Shown here piece after piece: positions 23,076 through 61,729 of a DNA stretch of 64,000 nt (positions are counted from its first letter, which is position 1; the number at the start of each line of letters is the position of its first letter). A program made the translations under genes and the position numbers. Location of the stretch: NCBI GenBank assembly GCA_002452735.1, contig DKFD01000011.1:1-64000 (forward strand). The letters run 5' to 3'. The DNA is from Patescibacteria group bacterium UBA6805 (GTDB taxonomy: Bacteria; Patescibacteriota; Minisyncoccia; Minisyncoccales; Minisyncoccaceae). Under the pieces are notes generated by a model. It searched no databases, was not told where the DNA came from, and saw only the letters and a list, made by a program, of their open reading frames with translations.

Positions 23076-23080
23076 ATTGT

Positions 23081-24141: not shown

Positions 24142-24143
24142 AA

Positions 24144-24581: not shown

Positions 24582-24708
24582 AAAATTACTATATTTTACC
24601 ACAAACAGCGGGGAGGTTTCAAGGCGTGGGGAGCGAGATGTTGACAAAAACCAGCACATTGTTTATTATTATATCAGTCCTTTGACAGGATGATACGGAG
24701 ACTTAACC

Positions 24709-25107: not shown

Positions 25108-25133
25108 CTTTATGTTTATGCACCTTTTTCTTT

Positions 25134-25162
25134 TACAAAAGATTGACAAAATAAGAGATTTA
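25134..25162 (+). promoter_or_regulatory. candidate sigma70 promoter TTGACA-17-TATCAT, followed by strong RBS AAAGGAGG before the 25238 ATG
   Basis: sequence motifs. Confidence 0.45.
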
Positions 25163-25237
25163 GTTTATCATTAAACAGCCTTTATTAAAGGCATTAATGT
25201 AACTTGAAAACCGAAAAAAAGAAAGGAGGAAAATTGT

Positions 25238-26614: not shown

Positions 26615-26623
26615 TCCGATTTT

Positions 26624-27109: not shown

Positions 27110-27125
27110 ATTTGTTGATATAGAA

Positions 27126-29159
27126 TTAGGATATGGAGTTGGTAATAATGTCCAGTTTTTTGGTTATTTCTTTTTTCATGTTTTTTGCCTCTGTCGTCGT
27201 TAAATTATTAAGTTCTTGAATTTTAGCATTGGCCTGAGCCGTCCATATCTTATTGCTTTTTACGGCTTCTTTTTGTTCTTCGCTTAGGTTCTTGAAAAGA
27301 TTATAGATTTGCCTTTGGTTGAGGCCCGTTACATGCTTTTCAAAATCAAAACCGTCAAAAGTCGAGGGGTTTTGTAGCGCGTCTCTTTGCTGTTGCGTCC
27401 CGCGTTCATCAAAATATTTTCGGTCTTTTTCTGTTAGATTTGCCGCAACGAAAATATTCGTCAGAGAATCTGTCCTTATTTTTTCCTGTTTTTCTTTGGC
27501 ACTCATTTTTGACATAATGTCTGCCGTGGTTTGTTTTCCGTCCGTCAGCTTTTCAGCCTCTTGGGGAACAAACTTGGCAAACTCTTTTTTGCTAAACCCG
27601 TAGTTTCCGGCCGTCTTAATGTTTTTCGTTAAATAATCTATTTCTCCGTCATTAAGGTCTTTTTTCTCCATTAGTATTTGCAATGCCATGTGCTTTTTTA
27701 TGTTATCTTCTCTTGTCATGGGGGTAATGCCGCTAATTCTGCGCAATCCGTCGGTTGTTAAATTTTCCATCGGCTCTTTAAACTGTTTGAATTCTTTTTC
27801 TTCCATTCCTGCCGCAGTTCCCGGTTTTTCAAGGCCGATATCTTCTTTTCTCCTTGTTACCCATTGTTTTGCTCCTTCTGTTCGCTCCAGCGGAGATTTT
27901 ATCATCCCAGTCAAGCCGGCCGTGCTTGCAACCCTGCTTTTCTCGTCCACTTTGGCGGTCAGGGCTTCCTTAACACCGGTTTTTGTTCCGCCATACAGTC
28001 CCCCGCCCAAAACATAGGCGGCTCTTTTGGCCAGTCCATCGTCTTTAGTAAGAGCAGCCTGGGTTTTTGCTCCGGCATAGGCTCCGGTGGCGAATCCTGC
28101 TCCGGCAGCAGTCAGTCTTCCGAAGGCCTGCCTTCCATATCCGGTTGCCATTTCCGCTATTTGTCCGCCCGAAGAAACTGTTATGAAAAACCCGACAACA
28201 AGGAAGGCAAGGGGGACAATAAGACCAAGTAAACCACCAAGTCCAACAAGTCTTCCTCCTGGCTCTGAAACAAGCGGACTAATGGCCATCGTGGCCATTG
28301 TTTTATTTGACAGGTAGAGAGAGAAGCTGGCCGGAATACCGATAACCGTCCATTGAAGGAAATTGTTCCACCATTCATCCCAATAAGTGATGCTGGGAAA
28401 TATTTTTTGGAGATATTTTCCTTCGGGAAAAACCTTGCTGGCAAAGGCGATGGGAGAAACTATGACCAAAATCCACAATACAATGTGCCTGGCCAAGAAT
28501 ATGAAAGCGTAAAGGAAATATATGACAGTGGCGAATATGGCGAAAAGAAGGTAAGCGATAGGAAAAATGGGATCGTCAAAAGTAAAAGATTTGGACCGTA
28601 GTCCTTCGAGAATTATCTTTGCCATGTCGTAATTAATTCCACTGGTTAAAAATAAACCCATTAATTTGTTGGCAAAATCAATCATCACGCCGGCGATTAC
28701 CGGGGTGAAATTAATCAAAAGAGCTATGCCGACGAAATTAATCAATGCTTTTTTGGCTTTTGTTTCCTGAAAGCCGAGAATGATACTGATGGCAACGGCC
28801 ACCAAGCCGAAGACAAGAGCAACGTTGGCCAGGTTTCTTACCGTTTCCCATCCCATTTTGACGACGGGATTGTCTTGAATGGTGGTTCCCATGAAATCAG
28901 GACTGATAACCCAGGCCAACAAATCGTTGCCAACCTGCAATATTCCTTGGGCTATGCCAGAAAGCGTAAGGGTAAAGACAGCAAGAATCGCAGACCCTAT
29001 ATTAACAGAGTCTTCGTTTCCGCCAACAAATTGCGCTATCTTACTAATCATGGTGGCCCCGGCTATAATCTCAAACAGTTGAGCCCGGGCCAGAATAGGA
29101 GTAAGGATGAATAATAGAGAAAGGAAAATTATAAAAAATGTTTTGATTGAATGTTTCAT
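27126..29159 (-). CDS. VirB6/TrbL-like polytopic membrane protein with long K/E-rich C-terminal tail
   Basis: 677 aa; signal peptide, at least 6 predicted TM helices in the first 330 aa, Gly/Ala-rich linker, hydrophilic coiled-coil-like C-terminus; genomic association with VirB4. Confidence 0.5.
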   Translation of the reverse strand: MKHSIKTFFIIFLSLLFILTPILARAQLFEIIAGATMISKIAQFVGGNEDSVNIGSAILAVFTLTLSGIAQGILQVGNDLLAWVISPDFMGTTIQDNPVVKMGWETVRNLANVALVFGLVAVAISIILGFQETKAKKALINFVGIALLINFTPVIAGVMIDFANKLMGLFLTSGINYDMAKIILEGLRSKSFTFDDPIFPIAYLLFAIFATVIYFLYAFIFLARHIVLWILVIVSPIAFASKVFPEGKYLQKIFPSITYWDEWWNNFLQWTVIGIPASFSLYLSNKTMATMAISPLVSEPGGRLVGLGGLLGLIVPLAFLVVGFFITVSSGGQIAEMATGYGRQAFGRLTAAGAGFATGAYAGAKTQAALTKDDGLAKRAAYVLGGGLYGGTKTGVKEALTAKVDEKSRVASTAGLTGMIKSPLERTEGAKQWVTRRKEDIGLEKPGTAAGMEEKEFKQFKEPMENLTTDGLRRISGITPMTREDNIKKHMALQILMEKKDLNDGEIDYLTKNIKTAGNYGFSKKEFAKFVPQEAEKLTDGKQTTADIMSKMSAKEKQEKIRTDSLTNIFVAANLTEKDRKYFDERGTQQQRDALQNPSTFDGFDFEKHVTGLNQRQIYNLFKNLSEEQKEAVKSNKIWTAQANAKIQELNNLTTTEAKNMKKEITKKLDIITNSIS

Positions 29160-29229
29160 GGCTTGCCCTTATTGTTTTTTTTATGGTATAATTATTATAC
29201 CATTACTTTATTTTACGTTCAATATCCGC

Positions 29230-29529
29230 ATGTTAAATCTTAAATTCAGTCCGGAAACAGTGATTATGCTGACCTTCGCCGTTATCATAGACCTAATCGG
29301 GATAATCCTTATCTGTTTCGCCCTGGATGATTTCGGGGTTCTGGACATAGTGAGTGGCGTTATAATAGGTGGCTGGATGCTTTTCAGAAGGGGCCGGGTG
29401 GTGAATATCAAGACTCAAAAAAAGCAAATAGTGCGCTTCCTGGCGGGAATGGGGATAGAGATAACCCCCTATCTCGGCGCTCTTCCGGCCGTGACAGTCA
29501 TTACGCTTTTAACTTTAAGGGAAAAATAA
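29230..29529 (+). CDS. small 3-TM membrane protein, first gene of the pilin-fusion operon
   Basis: ORF 29107-29529; an internal start 'MLNLKFSPETVIMLTFAVII' avoids overlap with VirB6; candidate extended -10 TGGTATAAT at about 29187. Confidence 0.35.
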   Translation: MLNLKFSPETVIMLTFAVIIDLIGIILICFALDDFGVLDIVSGVIIGGWMLFRRGRVVNIKTQKKQIVRFLAGMGIEITPYLGALPAVTVITLLTLREK

Positions 29530-29530
29530 A

Positions 29531-32500
29531 ATGGACAAAAAGAAAATTATTTTTATTTTAATCCTTCTCGTTCTTCCTTTTTTTGTTATGGCTCAAGCCG
29601 GCCTGGAGAACGATTATCCGGCTATTGGCGGGACCCAACCCACGGACAGTTCTTCCCCGGCCGAATTCTTAAAATACATTTTCAACCTGGGAATTCTTTT
29701 CGGCGTCATTGCCGCTGTTTTCGTTTTGATTTCCCAGGGCGCGACCATGCTCATGGCCAAAGGAGAAATGGCCCTGGTCATTCTGGCTCAAGAAAAAATC
29801 AAAAGGGTTTTTGTCGGCCTCCTGATTCTTTTAGGCTCTTACATCATTTTAACAGCCATTAATCCCGATTTGAAGGTTATAAAATTCAGTCCCTTGGAAG
29901 TTTTTGAAAACATAATAAACAAGCCCGGAACCGAAGAAGAAACCTACCCTCTGTCGGAATTCGAGGAAATCCCCCTGGGCTCCATTCTGGAAAGCATTCT
30001 AGCCGCCAATTCTTCGGAAAGAATCTACAACGACAGAACCGAAGAGCTTTGCTACGCTTACGATGAAAACGGAGATACGATTGATAGAAATGACGACAAG
30101 AAGATAGACGAGAACGACCTGCTAAAAGGAATGGATATGTATTATTGCCTGTCGGAACTGAACAAAGCCATAATCAAGAAGATAAGAGATTTGAACGGAG
30201 GCAACTCTTTGTGTAACAGTCCCTCCAAAGGCGGGCCGATTGAAGAAATGAAAACTTTGATTGCCAGCGGCTGCAGCTGTCAGGCTTGTGATGTCTGGAA
30301 ACCAAATTATTATTGTCCGGGCTCCGAATGTTATCAGTGTATGACCTATGCCTGCGGGGAATGCAGTACTTGCTGTAAGGACCACTGCTCTTGTTGCGGC
30401 CGGGCTTATTACGCCCCGGATTTGGGTTGCCAACAGGTTAACGATAAATCAAGAGACCCTTGCGCGGCGGTCAGGGACGGCATAGATTGCGCCAGAAACG
30501 AAATCAAGCTGCGAGTTGACGGAAACGGATACGGCGTTCCAGGAGCGGCCGAGGATAAATGCGCTTTTACCAGATATTTCAACGAGAATGAATATAAGTT
30601 TTTAACAATCAGCGAGGGAAGGGAAAGGTTGGAATCGTTCAGAAACTATTTTCAGAACCATTTGACGGACTTGATAAAAGCGGAATCAATGATGAAATCT
30701 CCTTATGGGGAGAGAATATCGTTGGCCGAGTTTGAGGCCATTCGGTCCAAAGACCAATACAAAAAGACGGTGGCCAAAGAATTCCAAAACACCAACAGCG
30801 ATTATTCTTATAATCCGGTAAAATACTGTCGCGATTTCAATTGTACGGAATACAAAAACGGAGACGAAAAAAATCTTTGCGTGTCCGGAGGGAGAGTTGA
30901 TTTGACCCAGGAACTGATGGAAAAAGAAAAACTGATAGACCCCTTGTATGATAAGGAGCCCGAGATTTTTGACAAGAGAGTCTGCCAAGTAAATCAAATA
31001 CAAAACGGAAACGATACAGAGAGTTATTATTACGACGGCGACGGAGCGACCTTCTATTTCCAGGCGGGGTACAAGACAAAAAAAACAAGCAATCAAGAAA
31101 AATGCTCAATTGATTCCGCCATTGAGAAAGAAACCATCAAGAGCTTGATTCCTATTGGAGAAACGGTTGATGCTACGGAAAAATTCGCTGAAGACGTTTT
31201 GGTTTTAATAAATCAAATTATGTCGGAAACCCGGGAGACTATTGAGAAAGCAATTCAGTTAAGTGCCCTGCCAGAGAAGTGTGATTGTTCTCAGGGCTGC
31301 AGCAACAGATCTGACTGCAGATGTTCTACCAGCGAAGAAGGATGCACCAGCTGTTCTTGTGGTTCGTGTCTGGCCTGCGATGCCAGATCCCAAACGCTGT
31401 GCACTTGCTGTAAAGACTGCGAAGAGGTGGAGGTCGTTGATGAGAATATTCCCAGTCCTTGGGACGATATGACCAGTTTTGGCTATTGCCCGTCTTGCCC
31501 GTCCCTTTATTCGACCGGAGACGTGAACGAGTACTGGACCTATTGCCCTTGTAGCGGAATCCTGCTTTTTCCCAATATATCGCTTATTAACGACCCTAAA
31601 ACCCAGTTTTGTTATTTGGGAGAAGAGCTTGGTTCTTATTGTTCTTTAAGTTTTCAAGAAGAAAAATGCCAAACAGCATTTAGAAGATTGCCTTTAATGT
31701 GCATGCTTTCAAGAGTAAGCGCTCCCAGATTTGTAAATTATACCATAGAAAGCTGTCAAGCAGTCAGCCAGAACCCAACCGTGGCTCCCATTCTTTGCGG
31801 AAGCGGTTTGAATACTTATTACACTCAAAAAAACATTTTAACGTTAAAACCCAAGTCAGAAATAATCGTTGTTTGCGAAGGACAGCAGCCGGTTAATCAA
31901 GAAGCAATAAATAATTTAAACGTCCACTGCAGCACGAGTTGCAAGGGTGAACCGGGATGTCAAGGACGTCTTGATTGGATAAGCGCCGATGAATTTATCT
32001 TAACAAATTATTTCTGCAAAGGCCCCATGGCTCCGAAAGACCCCAAGGGCCTAATAGGGAGAGACAGTACGCCTTATAATAATTCCATGTCCATTTTTTT
32101 ACCCGGCGGCCATGAAATAGTCAGCATCGAGGCCATTCCTTTGACCACCGGCGCGAGGTCTGTCAAGTATTATCATCTCGGGGGTTGCTCCACGGAGTAT
32201 ACCGACGATGGACCGGTGGAGCATTGCACAGAAGCGGGCTACAACACCTATCATTTTTGGGACGGCGGTTATGCTTTGAAAATCAAGGTTGTCAATACGA
32301 TAAGAATAAAACGGGGAGAGATTGACAATCAGGCTTATTACGTCTGTCCCTATAATGACATAAAAGACAGGCAGTGCCGGATATTCAAATACAGCGACGA
32401 TGTAGAGCCGAATTATCCGGAAAACATTGATACGGATTACGACTGCCGGGATGAAAATTCTTCCGGCGCGGGATATCTTCAGAAGATAGAGCTTTTGAAC

Positions 32501-32902
32501 GACCGCCTGAACAATTTAATCCAAGGCAAAAACTTAAGGGAGGGCGATGTCAATCGCTGGACGATTCTGGAAAAGCTCTCTTTGACAAGAAAGAGGGCGG
32601 AATCCTGCGTCCGGGGCTATGGCTTTCCCCACAAAGAGGACTTGACCGAGCAAAGGATATTTTCCTGCCAGGAAGGGATTGATGCCACAATTTTGAATTC
32701 TTTGGTCGTTTTGCCCGACTTCCCCTACCCCCAAACCGGAAATTACTGGAATTGCTATCCTTTGAACAGCAGTTTTCTGACCAATGACCAGAAAGAATCT
32801 TGCTATATCAACAAAGATGCCGAGGGAACCGAAGCAGACCCGAAATGCCAAAGATTAATCAAGGGCATGATGGATAATTATTATTGCTGCCAGGGAGAAT
32901 AA
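29531..32902 (+). CDS. secreted VirB2/TrbC-like pilin domain fused to a very large Cys-rich ectodomain
   Basis: 1123 aa; signal peptide '...FFVMAQA', then two hydrophobic helices separated by a short 'AKGE' loop and ending 'ILTAINP' (T4SS-pilin-like); the remainder is dense with CxxC/CC clusters, e.g. 'CSCQACDVWKPNYYCPGSECYQCMTYACGECSTCCKDHCSCCG'. Confidence 0.6.
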   Translation: MDKKKIIFILILLVLPFFVMAQAGLENDYPAIGGTQPTDSSSPAEFLKYIFNLGILFGVIAAVFVLISQGATMLMAKGEMALVILAQEKIKRVFVGLLILLGSYIILTAINPDLKVIKFSPLEVFENIINKPGTEEETYPLSEFEEIPLGSILESILAANSSERIYNDRTEELCYAYDENGDTIDRNDDKKIDENDLLKGMDMYYCLSELNKAIIKKIRDLNGGNSLCNSPSKGGPIEEMKTLIASGCSCQACDVWKPNYYCPGSECYQCMTYACGECSTCCKDHCSCCGRAYYAPDLGCQQVNDKSRDPCAAVRDGIDCARNEIKLRVDGNGYGVPGAAEDKCAFTRYFNENEYKFLTISEGRERLESFRNYFQNHLTDLIKAESMMKSPYGERISLAEFEAIRSKDQYKKTVAKEFQNTNSDYSYNPVKYCRDFNCTEYKNGDEKNLCVSGGRVDLTQELMEKEKLIDPLYDKEPEIFDKRVCQVNQIQNGNDTESYYYDGDGATFYFQAGYKTKKTSNQEKCSIDSAIEKETIKSLIPIGETVDATEKFAEDVLVLINQIMSETRETIEKAIQLSALPEKCDCSQGCSNRSDCRCSTSEEGCTSCSCGSCLACDARSQTLCTCCKDCEEVEVVDENIPSPWDDMTSFGYCPSCPSLYSTGDVNEYWTYCPCSGILLFPNISLINDPKTQFCYLGEELGSYCSLSFQEEKCQTAFRRLPLMCMLSRVSAPRFVNYTIESCQAVSQNPTVAPILCGSGLNTYYTQKNILTLKPKSEIIVVCEGQQPVNQEAINNLNVHCSTSCKGEPGCQGRLDWISADEFILTNYFCKGPMAPKDPKGLIGRDSTPYNNSMSIFLPGGHEIVSIEAIPLTTGARSVKYYHLGGCSTEYTDDGPVEHCTEAGYNTYHFWDGGYALKIKVVNTIRIKRGEIDNQAYYVCPYNDIKDRQCRIFKYSDDVEPNYPENIDTDYDCRDENSSGAGYLQKIELLNDRLNNLIQGKNLREGDVNRWTILEKLSLTRKRAESCVRGYGFPHKEDLTEQRIFSCQEGIDATILNSLVVLPDFPYPQTGNYWNCYPLNSSFLTNDQKESCYINKDAEGTEADPKCQRLIKGMMDNYYCCQGE

Positions 32903-32921
32903 TAAATTAATTGAATCAAGC

Positions 32922-34247
32922 ATGAAGAAAAAAATATTATTTCTGTTCCTTCTGCTCTCTCTTGTTTTGGTTTCCAATGTTTATGCCTTGGAAGCGCAGT
33001 ATCCTGAAATTCTGGGTAAAACCATAACCGATGAAACCACGCCGGCTGGTTACGTGGTATATTTCTTCTATCTGGCCATGTCCTTGGGAAGCGTTCTGGT
33101 TTTCATAATCTTGGTCATGGCCGGAATTGATTTTATCACCGCAGGAGGAGAGCCGGCGAAAATAAGCGAAGGGAGAAAAAAGATAATCAGCGCCATTGTC
33201 GGCTTGATAGTTCTTTTCAGCTCTTTCCTGATTCTTAACAGTATCAATCCCGCCTTGCTGAAGATAGAGCTGGAAAAATTGGAATGTCCGGGAGGAATTT
33301 CAATCGTGAAGCAGAAAGCTGACGGGAAGAAAGTTGATGACTGCATAACCGGCAGCGTAAGCAACATCGAAGGAGACGTTATTGAGACAAAGGGATGGGT
33401 TTTTTCGGGTTGTCTCGTAAAAGAGGTCTATCTTTGCACTCAGCCGGGCTTCAAAGGAACCTGCACTAAAGTTTCTGACCCCAAAAGTCAGAATTTTACC
33501 TGCCAACCCAATTACCAGTTCACAAACGGTACCAGCTTAAGCGGAGTCAAATCAGTAAAATTCGTCTGGCGCTCACCCGGAGTATATTTGTACGACAACA
33601 TCAACTTTGAACCAAACGACCTCAGCAAAAGCCCGAAGCATCTCGGCAGCAACATTAAAAATATGAACGACGTCGGTTTTGACAATATGGCTCAATCATA
33701 CCAGTTAATTTTCCCGGAAACGGAAACAGCCGAAGAGATTCCGATATATTACGGTGCGGTTTTTTTTGACAGCTTCAATTATTCGGGCAAATGCAGTCTG
33801 GAAATAATGAACCAAAAGGACTTGGGAGTTCCCACTTCCATCGGAAGGAACACCTTGTCTTCGGCCATTGTTTTCACCCAAAAAGAGACCGATACCCTCA
33901 AGGATTTGGGCGACATTGTTTTGTACAATAACATAGATTGCGGACAAAGTACCAGCGAGGAAGTAAAGAAATGCTCCCTGAATATTTACAATTACATAAC
34001 AGTCGGAAAGATTAAAGACGATTGTCCCGAATTCGAGGACGGAGACTACGTGCTTTCTTTCAGCATCAACGGACCCGGAGGCATGATTTTAAAAGGAAGC
34101 CAGAACGCGCTTTGCGAATATTTTGATTCCAAGAGCATGGTTTCCGGCAGTTGTTATCCGAGCTTAAAAACCAAATCAACAATTTACGTCCAGGGGCCTG
34201 GAGGAACCAAGCCTGAGTCTTATATAATCTTCCCGGTGGACAATTAA
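32922..34247 (+). CDS. secreted VirB2/TrbC-like pilin domain fused to beta/gamma-crystallin-like repeats
   Basis: 441 aa; signal peptide, pilin-like helices '...VLVFIILVMAGIDFITAGGEPAKISEGRKKIISAIVGLIVLFSSFLILNSINP'; C-terminal repeats with Greek-key-like 'GVYLYDNINFEPND...SYQLIFPE' and 'AVFFDSFNYSGKCSLEI...LSSAIVF'. Confidence 0.6.
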   Translation: MKKKILFLFLLLSLVLVSNVYALEAQYPEILGKTITDETTPAGYVVYFFYLAMSLGSVLVFIILVMAGIDFITAGGEPAKISEGRKKIISAIVGLIVLFSSFLILNSINPALLKIELEKLECPGGISIVKQKADGKKVDDCITGSVSNIEGDVIETKGWVFSGCLVKEVYLCTQPGFKGTCTKVSDPKSQNFTCQPNYQFTNGTSLSGVKSVKFVWRSPGVYLYDNINFEPNDLSKSPKHLGSNIKNMNDVGFDNMAQSYQLIFPETETAEEIPIYYGAVFFDSFNYSGKCSLEIMNQKDLGVPTSIGRNTLSSAIVFTQKETDTLKDLGDIVLYNNIDCGQSTSEEVKKCSLNIYNYITVGKIKDDCPEFEDGDYVLSFSINGPGGMILKGSQNALCEYFDSKSMVSGSCYPSLKTKSTIYVQGPGGTKPESYIIFPVDN

Positions 34248-53391: not shown

Positions 53392-53976
53392 ATGAACCTG
53401 ATACCAACGGTAATCGAGAAGTCGCAACACGGGGAAAGAGCTTACGACATTTATTCCAGGCTTTTAAAAGAGAGGATTATCCTTTTGGCCGGGGTTTTTG
53501 ACGACAACATAGCCAATTCCATAGTGGCTCAGCTCCTGTTTCTGTCTTCAAAAGACCCGAAAAAGGATATTCAGCTGTATATTAACAGCCCGGGAGGGTC
53601 GGTTACGGCCGGTTTGGCGATTTACGACACCATGCAGTACATAAAACCGGACGTTTCCACTGTTTCCATAGGCATGTCTGCTTCAATGGGCGCTCTGATA
53701 CTGGCTGCCGGAGCCAAAGGCAAGCGATATTCTTTGCCCAATTCCGAGATTTTACTCCACCAGGTGGCCGGAGGAGCAAGGGGGCAGGCAACGGAAATAG
53801 AGATTACGGCCAAGCAGATACTGAAAATCAAAGAAACTCTCAATAAAATACTGGCTAAGCATACCGGCCAGCCGTTATCCAAAATTTCCAAAGACACGGA
53901 TAGGGATTTTTATCTCACTGCCCAGGAAGCGAAGGAATACGGAATCATCGACGAGGTGTTCGGAGGGAAAAAATAG
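53392..53976 (+). CDS. clpP: ATP-dependent Clp protease proteolytic subunit
   Basis: 194 aa; catalytic Ser context '[11 protein letters not shown]', His 'LLHQVAGG', Asp 'DTDRDFYL'. Confidence 0.9.
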
Positions 53977-53995
53977 GGGACAGCCCCTGTTTTTT
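53976..53995 (+). terminator. rho-independent terminator after clpP (GGGG-ACAG-CCCC + TGTTTTTT)
   Basis: hairpin followed by a T-tract, read from the sequence. Confidence 0.6.
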
Positions 53996-53996
53996 C

Positions 53997-54026
53997 TTGA
54001 CAAGAAATTAGGCCATAGAGTATAAT
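53997..54026 (+). promoter_or_regulatory. sigma70-like promoter TTGACA-18-TATAAT driving the Kelch/FISUMP gene through an approximately 160-nt AT-rich leader
   Basis: consensus hexamers at 53997-54002 and 54021-54026. Confidence 0.55.
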
Positions 54027-54190
54027 GGATTAAAGTTAATCATAAAAGGTGAAGTGTTTATGAAAAAACTTTTTATTTGTAGGAATTTTTCCGATTGTTT
54101 AATTATAAATTTTTTAATTAATAAAAGATATTCTTTAGCATGTGCTAAAGAATTTTTAATAAATAAAAATATAATAAAAAAATAAATAAT

Positions 54191-57100
54191 ATGGAAAACA
54201 AAATTTTCAAAACAATATTTTTTCTTTCAATAATATCAATGATTTTTATTGGAGGAGATGTTTGGGCAGATACTTGTAATGTGTGGACGTCTAAAACTAG
54301 TATGTCTATTAGTAGGGGTCACATGGGTTCGGCAGTAGTTAACAATAAAATTTATGTAATAAGTGGTTATTTAGGCAACTATGTAAGAACAAACAAAGTT
54401 GAAGAATATGACCCAGCCACTAACACATGGACAACTAAGGCCGACATACCTACAGCTAGAGAAATGTTTGGGGCCGCAGCTGTAAACAATAAAATTTATG
54501 CAATTGGAGGAGGAACTCCAAACACAACAGGTATAGTTGAAGAATATGACCCAGCCACTAACACATGGACAACCAAGGCTAACATGCCTACAGATAGAGC
54601 TGATTTTGGTATTGCAACTGTAAATAATAAGATTTATGTAATTGGAGGGATAAGAAATGACGGTGGCGCTGGTAATAAAGTTGAAGAATATGACCCAGCC
54701 ACTAACACATGGACAACCAAGGCCAACATGCCTACTGCAAGAGTGTCTCTTACTGCCGCAGCTGTAAACAATAAAATTTATGCAATTGGAGGGATAAGTG
54801 ATGGTGGCTACACAGATCTAAAAATAGTTGAAGAATATGACCCAGCCACTAACACATGGACAACTAAGGCTAACATGCCTACTGCAAGGAGTTATCTTAG
54901 TTCAAACTCACCAGCTATCAATGGTAAAATTTATGTCATTGGAGGGACTTCTGGAGGATCTTCTACAAACAAAGTTGAAGAATATGACCCAGCCACTAAC
55001 ACATGGACAACTAAGGCTAATATGATTACAGGTAGAGTTGGTCTTGTTACGGATGCAGTAAACAATAAAATTTATGCGATAGGTGGTTATGATAATAGTT
55101 CTTATGTATCAATTAATGAAGAATATGCTCCTTGTAACAACGGTTCTTGTGGAACAGCTAACGGTCACGGGTACTATTCAACATCATATATTGATACTTC
55201 TTCTGAAAGATGTTATGCAGGAACATTTGGCGGTTCGTTTGTCGACAATGGTTCTTCTTGGGGCTGGAGTTGTATAGGAACTGATGGTGGGACAACAGCA
55301 TCTTGTAGTGCCAATAAAGTTTTGGCAGGAAACTCAAACGGTCAGACACTGAAAAATCCACCGATAAACAACCTCTGCATGTATGGAGAACCGACGACAC
55401 CGATACTGACTGAAGATGTTTGGTATTGGTTTTGTAGAGATAATCCTGGAGTAGACGCAGTCGGTTACACATATAAAACCGCTTGTGGCTATTCTGACGG
55501 AGGAAGCTCATCTTATCCTCCCGAGACAGATCTTTGCAAGCATGGAGAACCCTCTTCAGTGATAACGGGCGAAACATATACATGGACCTGTACTGGGAAT
55601 GATTCCCTTTCGGTTAGTTGTTCTACAGACATTAATAGTAAATGCGGAACAGCTGATAGACATGGATACTCGGCGACTTCATACATAGATCTTAGTGAAG
55701 AAAGATGTCAGTCAGGATCAGCATTCGGCGGTGTATTTATCGACAGCGGTTCTTTTTGGAATTGGACCTGTGGCGTTAGTTCTTCGTCTTGGACGATAAA
55801 TGCATCTATGCCGGTTAGCGGTGAAGATATTAGGCCTCACACGGCGGTTATCAATGGAAAAATTTATATCATCAAAACATCGGCCCCTAGTGTTCATGAA
55901 TATAATCCAAGTACTAATACTTGGGTAGCAAAGGCCAGCATGCCCACTGCGAGAGAGGATCTTTCTAAGGCGTCTAAGGCGATAGTTATTAATAACAAAA
56001 TATATGTATTAGGAGGAAGGATTTTAGGTGTTAATTTAAAAAACAATGAAATGTATGATCCGGCTACTAATACTTGGACGATAAAAGCGCAAATGCCCAC
56101 AACTGCTTATGAATCGGGCATAGTAGCTGTTAATGGAAAAATATATCTAATCGGTATGAATGGTGCTTCTAGAACAGTCTATGAATATAATCCAAATACC
56201 GACACATGGACAAACAAAGGATCAGCCATTCCCAACGAAAGGACTGCTAATACTGGAGGGATGACAGCGGTTGTCGATGGCAAAATTTATGTCATTGGAG
56301 GTAATTCTACGGGTTCTACTGACGAATACGATCTAGTCACTAACACCTGGACGACCAAAGCCAATATGGTTTTTCCGATACAAGATGGAGTAGTAGCGGT
56401 CGTCGATAAAAAAATATATATTCTGGGGGGCAGAGATATGGACTGGATACCCAAAATGTGGAACCAACAATACGATCCGACCACTAACACATGGAATAGT
56501 TTAGCTAATGTCCCTTATAATACATCCAATGTGGTCCCCGGATTGGCTGTTCTCGACAACAAAATATATCTGATGGGACTTAGTGGTAGTTCTACTACAA
56601 GAAATTTTTATGAATTCAATCCAATCACTAATATTTGGTATTATAAAACACCAATGAACTTCGAAAAAGAACGTTTTGGGGTAGCGGTCGTCGACAATGT
56701 AATTTATACCATCGGGGGATGGAATCGCAACGAAAACGAATCATACGGGTTTTCGAGTACCTGCTTTGCCAACAAGGTTGCGACTGGAAATGCTGACGGT
56801 CAAATACTGAAAAACGAGCCTTTAGTCGATCTTTGCGAATACGGAGAAACAACAACACCGATCCTGGCTGACGATGTTTGGAATTGGACCTGTACCAATA
56901 ATCCCGGAGTGGACGCATTCGGCCTTGCTTATAAAACAACTTGTGGTTCTTCCCATGGAGGATTTTCTTCAGAGCCACCAACTGATTTATGTAAACACGG
57001 AACGCCTTCTGAGGTTATAGATAATCCTTTAACCTATGATTGGACCTGTATGGGAGATGATTCATTGGCAGTTACTTGTCAGGCTCCAAAAGAGTTTTCT

Positions 57101-58597
57101 TGCGGTAATAATTTTATAGATTCTCGTGATAGTCAAACATATTCTACTGTTCAAATAGGAGACCAATGCTGGATGAAAGAGAATTTAAATTATACAACAG
57201 GAAATAGTTGGTGTTATGATGATAATCCTGCTAATTGTGATATTTACGGAAGATTATACAATGCAAGCACCGCTCAAACTGCTTGTCCTTCGGGGTGGTA
57301 TTTGCCAAGCGACGCCGAGTTTGGTGTTTTATTTAGTTTTGCTAGTCAGAGCATGAATAAGCTTCGAGCTTCCCCTCCTGCTTGGGACGGACAAGACAGT
57401 TATGGATTTAATGTACTTCCCTCTGGAGGGCGAGTTAGTGGCGCATACGAGCATCTTGGTTCGATGAGTGGTTTTTGGGATTCTGGTACGGTATTAGGAT
57501 ATCATATTGTCAAGCAGTTTTTTTCAGGCATGGATGTGGCGATTGCATACGCAGGAGAACCTTACGAGCCCAATGGTTATGCGGTTCGATGCCTTAAAGG
57601 TCCTGTTGATGGCGCTTGCGGTGCCAGCCAGGGCGGACTTTCGTCCACTCCTCCCGAGGCAGGTCTTTGCAGCGCCGGCAATCCTTCTTTTGTGACAACC
57701 AATGCCACGACATATACCTGGACCTGTAACAGTCCCGGAGGCGGGAGCGATGCTAATTGTTCGTCCAATAGGATATCATTCAACAATCCTTATGACATTA
57801 ACAGCGATGAATCGTGCTGGTTCTGCGAATATTACTATGACACGGGTGGAATCCTGAGAGAAGGAAAACTAAACAACGGCATAGCGGATTTGGAATTTAA
57901 GTTTACCACCAACGCTTCCGATTACAACTCTTATAAATTTGCCATAGGTACAATTAATGACGTGAGCCAGGCAATGCAAACCGACGGATGGCTTTCCGTT
58001 TCTTCTTCTGAAACATTATTCAGCGGAGCAAAAGTAAGAAGGTCGGGAGCAGACCAGAAAGAGGGGAGCAACGGTTTCTTGCTTACTTATACCAAGACAT
58101 ACTATTGGTGGGTGAAATTAAGGAAGCCGGACTTGACGGAAACAGAATGGATGGCGGGAGGAACATTAATCACTCCCGAGAAAGCGTTCCCGATAGTAAG
58201 GATAGCGGCCGACAAGGCAATCGTGACCGTGGGAACGAACATTCAGTATTGTGCCAACGCAGAGGGTGATTGCGCCCCGGTCTGCTGGACCGGAACGGGT
58301 GCCCCAGTGGTTGACCCTGATAATTATAACTGGCATTGCAGTGTTTGCTTTAATTCAAGCAATCAGCCCGTGGCTTGTACTAGCGGAAACGCATCTTTCT
58401 CATGGGTTTTGCCTACGGACAGCGGTGCCTACATGAATTCAACAACCGAACTAAGCGCCAATCCGGTATTCAGATTCAACCAGGTAATCCAGACATTTAA
58501 ACCGGGATTGGCCATAACAGGGTCCGAGTGCGCCGCCGAGGGAGAAACAGGAACAAAGGCGCCGTTGCCCAAATGGAGGGAGGTTTCACCGTTTTAA
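54191..58597 (+). CDS. giant secreted Kelch beta-propeller / FISUMP-domain protein
   Basis: 1468 aa; signal peptide; five near-identical Kelch blades 'NKIYxIGG...VEEYDPATNTWTTKANMPTAR' followed by a second, diverged propeller; two copies of an approximately 105-aa Cys module ('CxANKV..G..G..LKN.P...LC.YGE.TTPIL..DVW.W.C..NPGVDA.G..YKT.CG.S.GG.SS.PP.DLCKHG.PS.V.....Y.WTC.G.DSL.V.C'); a Fibrobacter-succinogenes-paralogous (FISUMP, TIGR02145-like) domain 'DSRDSQTYSTVQIGDQCWMKENLNY...CYDDNPANCDIYGRLYN...CPSGWYLPSD'. Confidence 0.7.
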   Translation: MENKIFKTIFFLSIISMIFIGGDVWADTCNVWTSKTSMSISRGHMGSAVVNNKIYVISGYLGNYVRTNKVEEYDPATNTWTTKADIPTAREMFGAAAVNNKIYAIGGGTPNTTGIVEEYDPATNTWTTKANMPTDRADFGIATVNNKIYVIGGIRNDGGAGNKVEEYDPATNTWTTKANMPTARVSLTAAAVNNKIYAIGGISDGGYTDLKIVEEYDPATNTWTTKANMPTARSYLSSNSPAINGKIYVIGGTSGGSSTNKVEEYDPATNTWTTKANMITGRVGLVTDAVNNKIYAIGGYDNSSYVSINEEYAPCNNGSCGTANGHGYYSTSYIDTSSERCYAGTFGGSFVDNGSSWGWSCIGTDGGTTASCSANKVLAGNSNGQTLKNPPINNLCMYGEPTTPILTEDVWYWFCRDNPGVDAVGYTYKTACGYSDGGSSSYPPETDLCKHGEPSSVITGETYTWTCTGNDSLSVSCSTDINSKCGTADRHGYSATSYIDLSEERCQSGSAFGGVFIDSGSFWNWTCGVSSSSWTINASMPVSGEDIRPHTAVINGKIYIIKTSAPSVHEYNPSTNTWVAKASMPTAREDLSKASKAIVINNKIYVLGGRILGVNLKNNEMYDPATNTWTIKAQMPTTAYESGIVAVNGKIYLIGMNGASRTVYEYNPNTDTWTNKGSAIPNERTANTGGMTAVVDGKIYVIGGNSTGSTDEYDLVTNTWTTKANMVFPIQDGVVAVVDKKIYILGGRDMDWIPKMWNQQYDPTTNTWNSLANVPYNTSNVVPGLAVLDNKIYLMGLSGSSTTRNFYEFNPITNIWYYKTPMNFEKERFGVAVVDNVIYTIGGWNRNENESYGFSSTCFANKVATGNADGQILKNEPLVDLCEYGETTTPILADDVWNWTCTNNPGVDAFGLAYKTTCGSSHGGFSSEPPTDLCKHGTPSEVIDNPLTYDWTCMGDDSLAVTCQAPKEFSCGNNFIDSRDSQTYSTVQIGDQCWMKENLNYTTGNSWCYDDNPANCDIYGRLYNASTAQTACPSGWYLPSDAEFGVLFSFASQSMNKLRASPPAWDGQDSYGFNVLPSGGRVSGAYEHLGSMSGFWDSGTVLGYHIVKQFFSGMDVAIAYAGEPYEPNGYAVRCLKGPVDGACGASQGGLSSTPPEAGLCSAGNPSFVTTNATTYTWTCNSPGGGSDANCSSNRISFNNPYDINSDESCWFCEYYYDTGGILREGKLNNGIADLEFKFTTNASDYNSYKFAIGTINDVSQAMQTDGWLSVSSSETLFSGAKVRRSGADQKEGSNGFLLTYTKTYYWWVKLRKPDLTETEWMAGGTLITPEKAFPIVRIAADKAIVTVGTNIQYCANAEGDCAPVCWTGTGAPVVDPDNYNWHCSVCFNSSNQPVACTSGNASFSWVLPTDSGAYMNSTTELSANPVFRFNQVIQTFKPGLAITGSECAAEGETGTKAPLPKWREVSPF
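54390..55120 (+). repeat. about five tandem DNA-level repeats (period about 145 bp) sharing a near-identical 50-60-nt core GTTGAAGAATATGACCCAGCCACTAACACATGGACAAC(T/C)AAGGC inside the Kelch gene
   Basis: cores at about 54399, 54536, 54683, 54827 and 54976. Confidence 0.8.
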
Positions 58598-58734
58598 TAA
58601 AACAGAGCGATAGGCTTTATGCTTAATCTGCCGGCTCTTCTGTTTGCACGGGGAGCAGGAAGGGGCGACACAGGAACCAATGCCTGGTCGCCCCCCTCAA
58701 ATGGAAAGAATGGCGTCATGGTTAAAGAAATTTT

Positions 58735-58764
58735 AAAACCCCTTGTCTTTACAGGGGTTTTTTG
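58735..58764 (+). terminator. rho-independent terminator after the Kelch/FISUMP gene (AAAACCCCT-tgtctttac-AGGGGTTTTTT)
   Basis: 7-9-bp stem plus T-tract. Confidence 0.6.
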
Positions 58765-58904
58765 ATATAATGAAATCGTAGATTATTAGATTAATTTGAA
58801 TCTTTGGTAACAATTTAAGATTTAACTCAATGAAGTCAAGAAGATTATCTTAAAGAATGACAAAAGCATAGGTATTTTTATGTGCCAAATTTTCAACTAC
58901 ATGT

Positions 58905-60843: not shown

Positions 60844-60917
60844 TGGTGGACCCGCGGGGAATTGAACCCCGGACTCGTCGATGCCATCGACGTGTGTTAC
60901 CTCTATACTACGGGCCC
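60844..60917 (-). tRNA. tRNA-Ala (anticodon GGC) with encoded CCA
   Basis: manual fold: acceptor GGGCCCG/CGGGTCC with G3:U70, anticodon stem CGTCG/CGACG with loop ATGGCAT, T-stem CGGGG/CCCCG with loop TTCAATT, 3' ACCA. Confidence 0.75.
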
Positions 60918-60991: not shown

Positions 60992-61729
60992 ATGGTGGGA
61001 AAAGAGGATTTGCATGAAAAGGCAGTAGCTTTAAGAAACAGAGGTTTTACATATGGCGAAATACTGGAAAAGATTAATTTCAAAGTCAGCAACAGCACTA
61101 TCTCTTGCTGGTGTTCTGGAATAGAGCTTACGCCGTCCCAGAAAGACAGAATTAAAGAGAAGCAAAGAAATTTTAAGCTTATCAAGCACCTAATAAGCAA
61201 GTCCATTAAGGATGAAGAAGGGGCAAGGGCTTGGGCGAAGGAAAAAGCTGAGTTAATCGCGAGTAATAATCTTAAAAATTTGATACTATCCGGAACAATG
61301 CTTTATTGGGCAGAAGGGTATGGTTCAACAGGAAAAAGTGCCGGATTCACAAACACAGACCCCCAAATGATAAAGATAATGATGAAGTTTTTCAGGGAGG
61401 TGTTGGGAGTAGAGGATAGAAAAATCAAAATAATGGTAAGAATTGATAAAAGAAACGATATTGGAAGAGCTGTAAATTATTGGTCAAAAATTGTTAAATT
61501 GCCATTATCCAATTTTCATAAAACGGAAATTTTAGAAACTAAAAACAATAAATATCCGAATGGCATATGCAGGATTACGGTTTATGATGTTTCTGTAAGA
61601 AGAAAGATTGACAATCTTCTTAAATTAATAAAAGATAAGTGGGCCCCTGTAGCTCAGAGGATAGAGCAGCACACTCCTAAGGTGAAGGCCGTAGGTTCGA
61701 TTCCTACCGGGGGCACAATTAAAATATGA
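60992..61729 (+). CDS. hypothetical protein with N-terminal HTH-like segment and a LAGLIDADG-like 'LYWAEGYGS' motif; the reading frame runs through the downstream tRNA
   Basis: 245-aa ORF; its last roughly 29 codons are the translation of the tRNA-Arg(CCT) gene, so the true 3' end is uncertain. Confidence 0.3.
   Translation: MVGKEDLHEKAVALRNRGFTYGEILEKINFKVSNSTISCWCSGIELTPSQKDRIKEKQRNFKLIKHLISKSIKDEEGARAWAKEKAELIASNNLKNLILSGTMLYWAEGYGSTGKSAGFTNTDPQMIKIMMKFFREVLGVEDRKIKIMVRIDKRNDIGRAVNYWSKIVKLPLSNFHKTEILETKNNKYPNGICRITVYDVSVRRKIDNLLKLIKDKWAPVAQRIEQHTPKVKAVGSIPTGGTIKI
61643..61715 (+). tRNA. tRNA-Arg (anticodon CCT) with a weakened anticodon stem
   Basis: acceptor GCCCCTG/CGGGGGC, canonical D-arm GTAGCTCAGAGGATAGAGCA and T-arm GTAGGTTCGATTCCTAC, loop CTCCTAA; the stem GCACA/GGTGA has only 3 Watson-Crick pairs; no CCA. 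Confidence 0.55.

Follow-up and report, generated by a model that had tools for sequence, protein, structure and literature searches.

The gene at 54191-58597 of the window, by which we mean the whole 64-kb stretch of DNA analysed, reads best as an inter-lineage recombinant at a fixed cargo slot, a reading to which we give a probability of about 0.65. A lower-GC relative most likely supplied its front three-quarters through recombination, because the leader, the signal peptide and the first Kelch propeller compare best with a low-GC clade, and the flanks and the C-terminal domain look native. The conserved C-terminal part would anchor or sort the protein, and the variable modules would bind the host surface. 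The organism is a Paceibacteria-type patescibacterium related to archaeal parasites of the family Minisyncoccaceae. Since the front of the gene is most likely imported, and the same slot is differently filled in relatives, we consider this a candidate host-recognition gene, with a putative binding function.

The transcription unit

The original prediction described an insulated gene, with a consensus promoter of its own, an extremely AT-rich leader of about 160 nt, and strong terminators on both sides. The promoter, a full consensus match, and the flanking terminators do make the gene transcriptionally self-contained, and the leader has about 15% GC over 158-164 nt (15.9% for the 164 nt of 54027-54190). 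Both terminators are present, but the downstream one starts 142 nt past the stop codon and not directly behind the gene. Table 1 lists all features.

Table 1. Features of the locus, in window coordinates.
Feature	Coordinates	Strand	Basis or remark
clpP intrinsic terminator, GC stem + T-run	53975..53995	+	sequence AGGGGACAGCCCCT, then T-run
Sigma-70-type promoter TTGACA-N18-TATAAT	53997..54026	+	12/12 consensus matches
41-nt leader block AAAGTTAATCATAAAAGGTGARGTGTTTATGAAAAAACTTT	54032..54072	+	invariant but for one A/G position
Upstream 41-codon ORF within leader	54060..54185	+	ORF comparison across loci
Leader hairpin, stem CTTTAGC/GCTAAAG, 4-nt variable loop, then U-run	54130..54159	+	conserved across loci
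Gene, secreted modular protein, 1468 aa	54191..58597	+	ORF call (ATG start), profile matches
Signal peptide, aa 1-26, MENKIFKTIFFLSIISMIFIGGDVWA/DT	54191..54268	+	read directly from sequence
Kelch beta-propeller 1, aa 27-305, six blades	54269..55105	+	profile search; GC3 ~0.24
Cysteine-module block 1, aa 306-535, units A-B-C-A'	55106..55795	+	self-comparison, AF2
Kelch beta-propeller 2, aa 536-865	55796..56785	+	profile search; intermediate codon usage
Cysteine-module block 2, aa 866-974, units B-C	56786..57112	+	61% identity to aa 380-486
FISUMP (Fib_succ_major) domain, aa 975-1136	57113..57598	+	TIGR02145, PF09603
Last cysteine unit, aa 1137-1193	57599..57769	+	contains compositional change point
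C-terminal domain, aa 1194-1468	57770..58594	+	conserved in relatives; host-like codons
Deleted second paralog relic	58598..58735	+	compared with relatives' gene 2
Terminator CCCTTGTCTTTACAGGGG + T6	58740..58763	+	overlaps rny promoter
rny promoter TTGTCT-17-TATAAT	58743..58771	+	shares sequence with the terminator

Upstream, the unit is bounded by the clpP terminator. Its stem differs in relatives with the pairing kept, AGGAC/GTCCT in L004 and CAGGAT/ATCCTG in L005, each followed by a T-run. The downstream terminator and rny promoter are kept in L002, L003 and L007, where they stand behind a second gene (gene 2) or a fused gene. Both hexamers of the gene's own promoter are invariant in all 8 distinct loci. 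The 41-nt leader block varies only at its single A/G position in seven of the eight lineages and has one further substitution in the eighth (L007), and it is kept even between lineages whose clpP identity is only 75-79%. It is the probable 5′ recombination junction.

Two other elements of the leader are less constrained or less certain. The upstream ORF has 28-41 aa, its frame and stop position vary among loci, and conservation is limited to the first four codons, which sit in the invariant block; it is probably not a conserved peptide. The hairpin stem is near-invariant (one U-A to U-G wobble, in L005) around loops of ATGT, TTCG, ATGC, ATAC or CGTG. It looks like a putative terminator or attenuator, but since no compensatory changes occur in the stem among the compared loci, the structure is not proven.

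Architecture of the protein

The product is a Sec-exported, modular, adhesin-like protein. On inspection by eye the N-terminus lacks a lipobox and shows a signal-peptidase-I-type site; the protein is thus not a lipoprotein. The modules named beforehand are all recovered by profile search and self-comparison. The two Kelch propellers match Kelch_1 at E = 1e-114, with 11 stretches in two blocks. The near-identical repeats noted there reduce to an exact 35-nt string present five times, in five blades of propeller 1; over the blades, the first 54 nt average 93% identity, and the remainder about 49%. The twice-repeated cysteine module of some 105 aa is a 107-aa block (aa 380-486 vs. aa 866-972, 61% identity, E = 1.7e-47). 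Both copies are pairs of a unit of about 50 aa, of which the protein has seven; units A-B-C are modeled by AF2 at pLDDT 95, and searches of Pfam, NCBIfam and the PDB returned no relatives of the module. The FISUMP domain scores 133 bits with TIGR02145 (cutoff 41.65, aa 975-1136) and 63.6 with PF09603 (cutoff 33.9).

A conserved C-terminal domain of 275 aa, behind the last cysteine unit, had been missed. It is predicted to form two beta-sandwiches, and has eight invariant Cys in a 283-residue aligned segment (aa 1186-1468). This domain of about 280 aa matched no model in Pfam or NCBIfam, known sorting domains included. At E ≤ 1e-3 the family takes in 625 of 1.84 billion cluster representatives. 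Among the best 150 of these matches, most align to within a few residues of the C-terminus, and 131 end in P-x-W-x-E plus 0-6 residues. The tail here is PLPKWREVSPF (58562-58594).

A compositional step of reversed polarity

The gene had been called a compositional mosaic, with low-GC N-terminal propellers and a C-terminal third much richer in GC. The mosaic is real, well beyond chance, but the polarity is reversed. At codon 1140 (nt 57611) GC3 steps from 0.308 to 0.527. The log-likelihood ratio of this change point is 25.9, where 1000 permutations reach at most 9.0, and the point falls together with a domain boundary and with the position from which the DNA is homologous to that of close relatives. 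Along the gene, GC3 runs at 0.19-0.42 to codon ~1100, and then at 0.47-0.57. The host genome has GC3 0.51 ± 0.066 (about 0.07), with a minimum of 0.32; thus the last 330 codons (0.53), including the GC-rich stretch 58240-58330 (56% GC), match the host, and the first 1140 (0.31) are anomalous. What is atypical is the N-terminal 78% of the gene and not its C-terminal end, and the import would be the low-GC N-terminal 3.4 kb.

A log-likelihood ratio of synonymous codons under a host model vs. a low-GC-clade model resolves this by module. Host genes score +0.39 ± 0.10 and low-clade genes -0.31 ± 0.06. The signal peptide and Kelch1 both score -0.28; Cys1, Cys2 and FISUMP about -0.11; Kelch2 +0.07; Cys3 +0.30; and the C-terminal domain +0.27.

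The same slot in relatives

Synteny of the clpP-rny slot holds across eight distinct lineages (the relatives being L002-L007 and L013), and the sampled slots include that of the cultured Methanospirillum parasite Ca. Microsyncoccus archaeolyticus PMX.50. In every sampled relative the slot holds one or two genes on one common plan: all have the promoter, the 41-nt leader block, a signal peptide and the C-terminal domain of about 280 aa, which closes with P-x-W-x-E, the second x being K or R as a rule. The cargo between these conserved ends has a different architecture in each genome sampled, drawing on Kelch or BNR propellers, FISUMP, PKD, LamG/DUF2341 and small disulfide-rich units, which we predict to be exchangeable ligand-binding modules.

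Uniform codon usage along the gene, and orthologues with the same architecture, were the two findings named in advance as speaking against a chimera. Neither was found, since codon usage is non-uniform and the positional orthologues do not share the architecture. The notion of a horizontally assembled chimera gains from the incongruence between the flanks and the leader and signal peptide, but not in the form of a one-off fusion of unrelated genes; judging by the loci compared, the chimera is a cargo replacement between conserved ends, and no two of the eight sampled lineages have the same cargo.

The incongruence is as follows. Compared with L002 and L003, identity is 83-87% in the flanks up to 54276, 75% over positions 57599-58600 and 87% from 58698 onward; the middle of the gene has only module-level matches of 64-70%. 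Over its last 420 nt, clpP shares 90-92% identity with the high-GC clade and 75-79% with the low-GC clade. For the variable leader, in contrast with these flanks, the values are 50-53% with the high-GC clade and 74-77% with three of the four low-GC lineages (64% with L006). The first 84 nt of the gene are 80-81% identical to L004 and L005, and 65-74% to the close relatives L002, L003 and L007, so that the signal peptide is of the low-GC-clade type. The C-terminal domain is 74% identical in amino acids to high-clade alleles and 51% to low-clade alleles, and its synonymous identity (0.59-0.64) is close to that of the flanks (0.67-0.77), which points to a domain native to the lineage.

Import or vertical descent

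We propose that a lower-GC lineage of the same family donated about 3.5 kb, from ~54070 (inside the invariant leader block) to ~57600 (the boundary of FISUMP and the last cysteine unit), through homologous recombination at the conserved ends; the native remainder would be the last cysteine unit, the C-terminal domain and both flanks. The last cysteine unit would be the 3′ junction, because the change point and the start of DNA homology fall there.

One alternative is that the whole gene is native and descends vertically with region-specific codon bias. Low N-terminal GC3 would then come from relaxed or different codon selection, AT-biased repeat turnover or selection on the mRNA, and the low-clade-like leader would be ancestral and lost by the other high-GC lineages. 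Close relatives' alleles do have GC3 of 0.24-0.51 in their variable parts vs. 0.55-0.57 in their C-terminal domains, below their housekeeping genes too, and a codon property of the whole family could thus account for part of the pattern. Moreover, the identity of the variable leader to the low-GC clade is not above that of clpP. But the codon score of the signal peptide and Kelch1 falls within the low-clade range and far below all 45 host genes tested (the lowest has +0.15), and the GC3 step is abrupt, right at the domain boundary. Quartets of housekeeping genes give the least support to a basal position of this lineage in the high-GC clade: that grouping has 57 and 47 sites, and the two alternatives have 69/62 and 93/54. 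With one outgroup, the support for a non-basal position is modest (69:62:57). Since the lineage is not basal by these quartets, ancestral retention would need two independent, identical leader replacements, and the low-clade leader is better taken as derived. We find vertical descent unlikely.

A donor of the imported modules was not found among 5.8 billion clusters, where the best protein identity is 46-64%; this too favors vertical descent. Kelch propeller 2 has relatives of 48-51% identity at best, and the best relatives of the FISUMP domain are low-GC-clade proteins at 46-55%. With no donor sampled, the donor clade of the proposed import is inferred from composition, leader and signal-peptide type only. 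The imported part also has GC3 of 0.24-0.42, above the ~0.15 of the sampled low-GC lineages, which calls for a donor of intermediate GC, partial amelioration, or more than one event. Kelch2 is especially intermediate in composition.

Could the gene be an assembly artifact, two strains or species joined at the conserved leader and C-terminal domain? Both junctions do lie in sequence conserved between lineages, where assemblers can switch templates. However, the NCBI, JGI and ENA collections record the 1468-aa protein (at least 99.6% amino acid identity) on five contigs, 31-117 kb long, and neither "parent" of the middle segment occurs in any sampled lineage. We regard an artifact as very improbable.

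Pneumococcal pspA and pspC and the neisserial surface antigens are mosaic genes produced by homologous recombination at conserved ends. The gene described here resembles them in its conserved 5′ and 3′ ends, its divergent center, and the phylogenetic incongruence of interior and flanks. It differs in that the exchanged unit includes a non-coding leader, the variation is between species-level lineages and not within a population, and the exchanging lineages are ~10% apart in genomic GC (GC3 0.5 vs. 0.15), hence the strong codon-usage scar.

Possible functions

Proteins built of cargo and a conserved C-terminal domain include type IX secretion CTD cargo in Bacteroidota and LPXTG sortase substrates in Gram-positives. 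The family shares with them an N-terminal Sec signal, diverse cargo, a conserved C-terminal beta-sandwich and a short, strictly C-terminal motif, the pattern expected of a sorting or anchoring signal, and we infer a putative C-terminal anchoring role. Unlike those systems, it has no LPXTG, C-terminal transmembrane helix or charged tail; its motif is its own, and its organisms are Patescibacteria, for which the literature searched holds no description of a cargo and C-terminal-domain sorting system. The domain and tail would retain the protein at the cell surface or steer its sorting. At the N-terminal side, the variable modules would project outward and bind host-surface glycans or proteins, and cargo exchange between lineages would shift binding specificity. 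A host- or glycan-interaction role, as originally suggested, is plausible from the domain content and the parasitic lifestyle of the relatives (PMC10936435, PMC12281837).

The propellers recall bacterial Kelch surface proteins (Kelch_1-6, NanM-like): there are two six-blade propellers with strong Pfam support, secreted and joined to other extracellular modules as in many matches from Elusimicrobia, Clostridia and Planctomycetes. They differ in being interchangeable cargo, and in the exact 35-nt core of propeller 1. The protein could instead be a secreted enzyme, with NanM-like sialic-acid mutarotase or galactose-oxidase-like propellers helped by carbohydrate-binding modules. PF24996 (NANM) does match at 83.5 bits (cutoff 45), as do the Kelch_3 and Kelch_4 "galactose oxidase, central domain" models, and several homologues carry the JGI label N-acetylneuraminic acid mutarotase. 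Yet the NANM match sits beneath much stronger generic Kelch matches, and TIGR03548 (cyclically permuted mutarotase), the sole mutarotase equivalog-type model matched, stays far below its cutoff (91.5 vs. 243.2 bits). Positional orthologues have BNR propellers, PKD, LamG or unknown modules in place of the propellers, and such swapping fits interchangeable binding scaffolds better than a conserved enzyme, which we judge quite unlikely.

FISUMP-type domains are viewed as surface-exposed ligand-binding scaffolds, and one class of target proteins of diversity-generating retroelements has Fib_succ_major motifs in its variable regions (PMC5758913). As in the FISUMP proteins of Fibrobacter and Bacteroidota (and in related C-lectin-like variable proteins of the DUF1566 type, among them Legionella LdtA), the domain here is extracellular and contains cysteines; here, however, it sits mid-protein in a long multidomain chain that is not a lipoprotein, in a patescibacterial host. 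That this C-type-lectin-like domain is hypermutated via a nearby reverse transcriptase and template repeat is hardly credible: the 64-kb window contains no second copy of FISUMP-coding DNA, the allele is nearly invariant across the five contigs, and what differences there are (N/D, P/S and I/T) are few and lie scattered, without adenine-specific clusters in FISUMP.

A relic behind the stop codon

By comparison with relatives' gene 2, the spacer behind the stop codon is what is left of a second paralog after a deletion. It retains the intergenic junction and gene 2's start codon (ATG 58619), to which the last ~115 nt of that gene are joined as a frameshifted remnant. The second tandem paralog would have been lost by internal deletion later than the import. 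A spurious 48-aa gene has been called at this relic in L001.

Domain architecture of the protein

The gene lies downstream of nusA, tig and clpP, and upstream of rny and hup. The original prediction proposed that its product carries two Kelch propellers, a ~105-aa cysteine module present twice, and a FISUMP domain, with near-identical repeats in the propellers, and all of these are recovered. Taking a propeller as six or seven tandem motifs of ~45-50 aa that exceed the Pfam gathering threshold, Kelch_1 matches with E = 1e-114 and 373.9 bits (cutoff 20.1) in 11 stretches, which form two blocks at aa ~30-305 and ~540-865. TIGR02145 identifies the FISUMP domain at aa 975-1136 with 133 bits (cutoff 41.65), covering profile positions 2-175 of 176, and PF09603 matches the same region with 63.6 bits vs. 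a cutoff of 33.9. The two copies of the cysteine module (aa 380-486 and 866-972) are 61% identical with E = 1.7e-47. As for the repeats, an exact 35-nt string, GAAGAATATGACCCAGCCACTAACACATGGACAAC, occurs in five blades of the first propeller without any synonymous difference, and outside of it those blades are only ~49% identical. This pattern suggests either short-tract gene conversion or a very recent amplification of blades followed by diversification; the propellers of the related loci L002, L003 and L007 have the same pattern, more weakly.

Each copy of the cysteine module is itself a pair of a ~50-aa unit, and there are seven such units in all. The A-B-C triple of units (~165 aa) occurs 27 times in 16 proteins of the family, at 40-67% identity. 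The module has no relative in Pfam, NCBIfam or the PDB sequences, and no significant fold match; PDB sequence searches with the FISUMP domain and with the C-terminal domain gave no matches either. AlphaFold2 predicts the triple as three small beta units (pLDDT 95, pTM 0.81), and because the units are small, this prediction is weak evidence for a new fold.

What the original prediction missed is a separate conserved domain in the last 275 aa, to which we return below. The protein starts with a Sec-type signal peptide, read straight from the sequence, and the rest of its content consists of extracellular-type modules; reading the protein by eye, we saw no transmembrane or lipoprotein anchor.

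Table. Coordinates of the features in the window.
Feature	Position	Strand	Remarks
dnaA	18084-19445	minus	
VirB4/TraG-like ATPase	21294-23153	minus	
Polytopic membrane protein	27126-29159	minus	677 aa
Cysteine-rich secreted protein	29531-32902		1123 aa, no Pfam match
Protein with N-terminus similar to that of the 1123-aa protein	32922-34247		441 aa
clpP terminator	53975-53995		promoter directly after
Promoter	53997-54026		TTGACA-N18-TATAAT, sigma-70, 12/12
Invariant leader block	54032-54072		41 nt
Leader hairpin	54130-54159		CTTTAGC-N4-GCTAAAG then U-run, conserved, 30-50 nt upstream of main ATG
Gene under study	54191-58597	plus	1468 aa
Blades with exact 35-nt string	54401-55011		propeller 1
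Spacer	58598-58739		49% GC
Downstream terminator	58740-58763		overlaps rny promoter; 142 nt past stop codon
tRNA-Ala	60844-60917	minus	
Uncalled ORF	60992-61729		245 aa, no Pfam match
tRNA-Arg	61643-61716	plus	

The clpP-rny locus in related genomes

A search of 5.8 billion protein clusters finds no full-length orthologue beyond three near-identical sequences (at least 99.6% identity). These three lie on five contigs recorded in the NCBI, JGI and ENA collections, which makes an assembly chimera very unlikely. Inside the window, a paralog search found no second member of the family.

Eight distinct related loci were recovered, by exact look-up of proteins and by scanning twice for patterns of the leader sequence. 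The gene is preceded by clpP in all eight, and followed by rny in all four that reach far enough (the window's own public-record locus L001, L002, L003 and L007). With clpP and rny on either side, and the conserved promoter and 41-nt leader block in front of it, the gene under study is thus one positional allele of a common slot. By composition and housekeeping similarity the loci form two clades, one of high GC (clpP GC3 0.56-0.64) and one of low GC (GC3 about 0.15-0.25). One of the low-GC loci, L005, belongs to Ca. Microsyncoccus archaeolyticus PMX.50, a Methanospirillum parasite with 31% GC (PMC10936435). Conserved across loci are the promoter, the 41-nt leader block, the leader hairpin with its U-run, the signal peptide and the C-terminal domain.

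Table. Module architectures, between signal peptide and C-terminal domain, at the clpP-rny loci. Gene 1 and gene 2 are tandem paralogs.
Locus	Clade	Modules	Length and remarks
Window	high GC	Kelch, Cys block, Kelch, Cys block, FISUMP, Cys unit	1468 aa
L002 gene 1	high GC	Kelch, many Cys units, Kelch, Cys	1612 aa
L002 gene 2	high GC	FISUMP, Gly-rich, DUF2341 ×3, LamG	2574 aa
L003 gene 1	high GC	Kelch, PKD, Cys	1124 aa
L003 gene 2	high GC	N-terminal Kelch propeller; recorded Pfam: Kelch, Gly_rich_2, Laminin_G_3, DUF2341	2544 aa
L007	high GC	Kelch, Kelch	1320 aa, single gene
L004 gene 1	low GC	PKD, Cys, Kelch, Cys, FISUMP	1699 aa; additional BNR gene
L005 (PMX.50)	low GC	Cys unit, then BNR-type propeller	partial, 610 aa
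L006	low GC	Cys units and domains without Pfam match	1394 aa
L013	low GC		partial, N-terminal 222 aa; start resembles that of the protein P0055 (848 aa, Cys units only)

Compositional mosaic and recombination between lineages

The gene had been described as a compositional mosaic with a C-terminal third much richer in GC than its N-terminal propellers. The baseline GC3, from 271 windows of 100 codons in the 46 other genes of the window, is 0.511 ± 0.066 with a minimum of 0.32. Along the gene, GC3 stays at 0.19-0.42 until about codon 1100 and then at 0.47-0.57. A single change point at codon 1140 (nt 57611) takes it from 0.308 to 0.527, with a log-likelihood ratio of 25.9 when the maximum among 1000 permutations is 9.0. 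The mosaic is therefore real, but its polarity is reversed: the C-terminal part is ordinary for the genome, and it is the N-terminal 78% that is the outlier.

The same can be asked of synonymous codons, by scoring each segment with the log-likelihood ratio of a model of the host (here the genome that carries the gene) versus a model of the low-GC clade. Host genes score +0.39 ± 0.10 (minimum +0.15), and low-clade genes -0.31 ± 0.06. The signal peptide and the first propeller both score -0.28, the two cysteine blocks and the FISUMP domain about -0.11, the second propeller +0.07, the last cysteine unit +0.30 and the C-terminal domain +0.27. The variable parts of the relatives' alleles are likewise mildly low in GC3.

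Comparison with L002 and L003 gives 83-87% DNA identity for the flanks (to 54276, and from 58698 on), 75% for 57599-58600, and in the interior of the gene module-level matches only, at 64-70%. Over the last 420 nt of clpP, identity is 90-92% with the high-GC clade and 75-79% with the low-GC clade. For the variable part of the leader the figures are 50-53% with the high-GC clade and 74-77% with the low-GC loci L004, L005 and L013. The start of the gene (its first 84 nt) is also nearer to L004 and L005, at 80-81%, than to the high-GC clade, at 65-74%. Since clpP matches one clade and the variable leader the other, the switch of lineage falls inside the invariant block, which offers perfect homology for recombination. 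At the other end, the C-terminal domain is 74% identical in protein sequence to the high-clade alleles and 51% to the low-clade alleles, and it appears to be native to the lineage; its synonymous-codon identity to the high-clade alleles, 0.59-0.64, comes close to the 0.67-0.77 of the flanking housekeeping genes.

Alternatively, the low-clade type of leader could be an ancestral state that the window's lineage has simply retained. Over nusA, tig and clpP together (3036 nt), this lineage is nearest to L007 (0.880; L002 0.861). Retention would have it as basal, but fewer informative sites support the grouping that makes it so, (L002, L007), than either alternative: with L004 as outgroup there are 57, against 69 and 62, and with L013 there are 47, against 93 and 54. 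As the basal position is the least supported, the L002-type leader would be ancestral to the high-GC clade and the window's leader derived, and retention is unlikely.

The allele is most likely an inter-lineage recombinant, which would explain the mosaic, at a locus whose cargo differs in each of the eight sampled lineages. None of these lineages is the donor: the interior modules reach no more than 46-64% identity with known sequences. The interior GC3 of 0.24-0.42 exceeds that of the sampled low-GC lineages, which suggests a donor of intermediate GC, amelioration, or several events. Mosaic surface-protein genes are already a known kind of thing. What is new here is the patescibacterial setting, the clear cross-GC codon scar and the conserved leader, together with two protein families, the C-terminal domain with its tail (no Pfam or NCBIfam match) and the cysteine module (no Pfam, NCBIfam or PDB match).

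The leader

The gene was predicted to be insulated by a promoter of its own, an AT-rich leader and terminators on both sides, and this description stands. The leader measures 164 nt from the -10 element to the ATG, with 15.9% GC. The 41-nt block, where the transcript seems to start, varies only at a single A/G position among seven of the eight lineages and has one extra substitution in L007, whereas clpP is only ~75% identical between the clades. The stem of the leader hairpin, a candidate structure, is constant across loci except for one wobble change. These conserved elements could be an attenuator or a protein-binding site.

Rfam at the gathering threshold reports only 7 tRNAs in the whole window, and in E-value mode the leader has a single miRNA match (E = 0.93), which is meaningless, so neither the leader nor the spacer downstream of the gene belongs to a known RNA family. 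A leader peptide with translational coupling is largely rejected, given that the length, frame and stop position of the upstream ORF vary between loci. The absence of a Shine-Dalgarno motif before the main ATG is uninformative, because among the 47 genes in the window only 8 carry such a motif in the 20 nt before the start codon, the upstream regions being AT-rich. Genes of this genome seem as a rule to initiate without a Shine-Dalgarno sequence.

A deleted second paralog

The spacer that follows the stop codon carries similarity to gene 2 of the relatives. Over its first 25 nt it looks like the gene 1-gene 2 junction together with the start of gene 2 (ATAGGCTTTATGC in the window, ACAGGCTTATGC in L002 and L003), whose start codon is retained as the ATG at 58619. 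Positions 58621-58710 are collinear with the end of gene 2 (last ~100-115 nt) in L002 and L003, which encodes ...NITGSDCGEEQEEGEG...RPPLPKWKE. This alignment has frameshifting indels; under permissive scoring it reaches z ≈ 5, a score attained by 1 in 1000 shuffles, and under strict scoring z = 2-3, which is not significant. From 58698 or 58728 on, there is 87% homology to the sequence downstream of gene 2. Junction, remnant and downstream homology together imply that an ancestral tandem paralog was lost by an internal deletion of ~7.5 kb, and that 58598-58765 is its relic. The 48-aa gene publicly recorded in the spacer is spurious, an artefact of the surviving start codon. A small RNA as the reason for the GC-rich spacer is rejected: there is no Rfam match, and there is the similarity to gene 2 remnants instead.

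In L007 (10868-11080), the single gene combines a gene-1-like C-terminal domain with the last residues of gene 2 type (…EVAP*) and the sequence downstream of gene 2. This suggests that L007 lost gene 2 independently of the window, by recombination between paralogous C-terminal domains.

The C-terminal domain family

The isolated 275-aa domain matches nothing in Pfam or NCBIfam, even at E <= 10. A word-index search with it finds only 8 short proteins, versus 625 proteins at E <= 1e-3 (53 at E <= 1e-30) when 1.84 billion cluster representatives are searched exhaustively with a profile; against that profile, aa 1187-1467 of the window protein give E = 3e-114. The named members are Paceibacteria. 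Eight cysteines are invariant in the alignment that defines the family (C27, C169, C176, C180, C198, C201, C211, C262), and over 15 diverse members, with a mean column identity of 43%, the invariant positions are eight Cys, several Trp, and P, W and E in the tail. Among the best 150 of the 625, the match mostly stops within a few residues of the C-terminus, and 131 of those 150 end in P-x-W-x-E plus 0-6 residues (mostly 3-4), as the window protein does with PLPKWREVSPF. Distant members carry different N-terminal cargo, for example GWAWSENIGWISF repeats.

A short invariant motif confined to the C-terminus, carried by a flexible tail that follows a conserved module and common to very different cargos, is the pattern one would expect of a sorting or anchoring signal. 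The likeness to type IX secretion CTDs and to sortase signals is one of analogy and not of membership: the known sorting domains and signals in NCBIfam and Pfam (type IX secretion CTD, PEP-CTERM and similar) do not match the C-terminal region, and the protein ends in ...APLPKWREVSPF, lacking both LPXTG and a hydrophobic stretch beyond the motif. In five distant members (P0195, P0215, P0221, P0237 and P0259) P-x-W-x-E is not terminal, and is followed by a 15-20-aa amphipathic or hydrophobic-looking segment such as KWREVSPISWLRNFLANLSSIF, which hints at a tail located at the membrane or cell surface.

Possible function

The Kelch and FISUMP modules would act as ligand-binding scaffolds, and the C-terminal domain would keep the protein at the cell surface; an exchange of cargo may change host specificity. 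Fib_succ_major has been grouped with DUF1566-type motifs in the variable regions of one target class of diversity-generating retroelements, and those regions belong to the C-type-lectin class, whose members bind ligands, are diversified and are exposed at the surface (PMC5758913). That the gene is itself such a target is not supported: a target comes with a template repeat ~90% identical to the variable region and a reverse transcriptase nearby, and the window has no second copy of 57101-57650, nor did we notice a reverse transcriptase among the window ORFs examined. An enzymatic, NanM-like role is unlikely because TIGR03548 (cyclically permuted mutarotase) reaches 91.5 bits vs. a cutoff of 243.2; PF24996 matches with 83.5 bits, under stronger generic Kelch matches.

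The relatives live as obligate parasites, attaching to particular structures on methanogen filaments (PMC10936435, PMC12281837). In the Methanospirillum parasites, specific recognition of the host's plug structures is believed to play a part in attachment, and pili are so far the only component implicated (PMC12281837); neither paper mentions this protein family or Kelch domains. The clpP-rny slot is a fixed, easily located locus, present also in the enrichment-culture organism PMX.50. It always codes for a secreted protein whose lectin-like or propeller cargo is interchangeable within a conserved frame, and at least one lineage has apparently received its cargo from another. These properties make it a concrete candidate for host specificity.

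Our joint reading, to which we give about one chance in four, is that the clpP-rny slot is an exchangeable host-recognition cassette of Paceibacteria that parasitise archaea and bacteria, in which an exchange of cargo between the invariant leader and the conserved C-terminal domain would direct the parasite to new structures on the surface of hosts. With its strictly terminal P-x-W-x-E, the ~280-aa C-terminal domain would be an undescribed, phylum-specific anchoring or sorting signal, and the leader, block and terminator-like hairpin together, a dedicated regulator of the cassette. If this functional reading is wrong, what remains is a well-documented case of inter-lineage mosaic evolution in a surface-protein gene, a known phenomenon. 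The analysis also defines three sequence families without a match among the Pfam and NCBIfam models, namely the leader element, the triple cysteine module, and the C-terminal domain together with its tail motif.

Other features of the window

The region 21294-34247 looks like a type IV secretion or conjugation-type cluster. Between tRNA-Ala and tRNA-Arg, and running through the latter, there is an ORF of low GC3 (0.38), uncalled in the public record, that may be the remnant of a mobile or homing-endonuclease-like gene.
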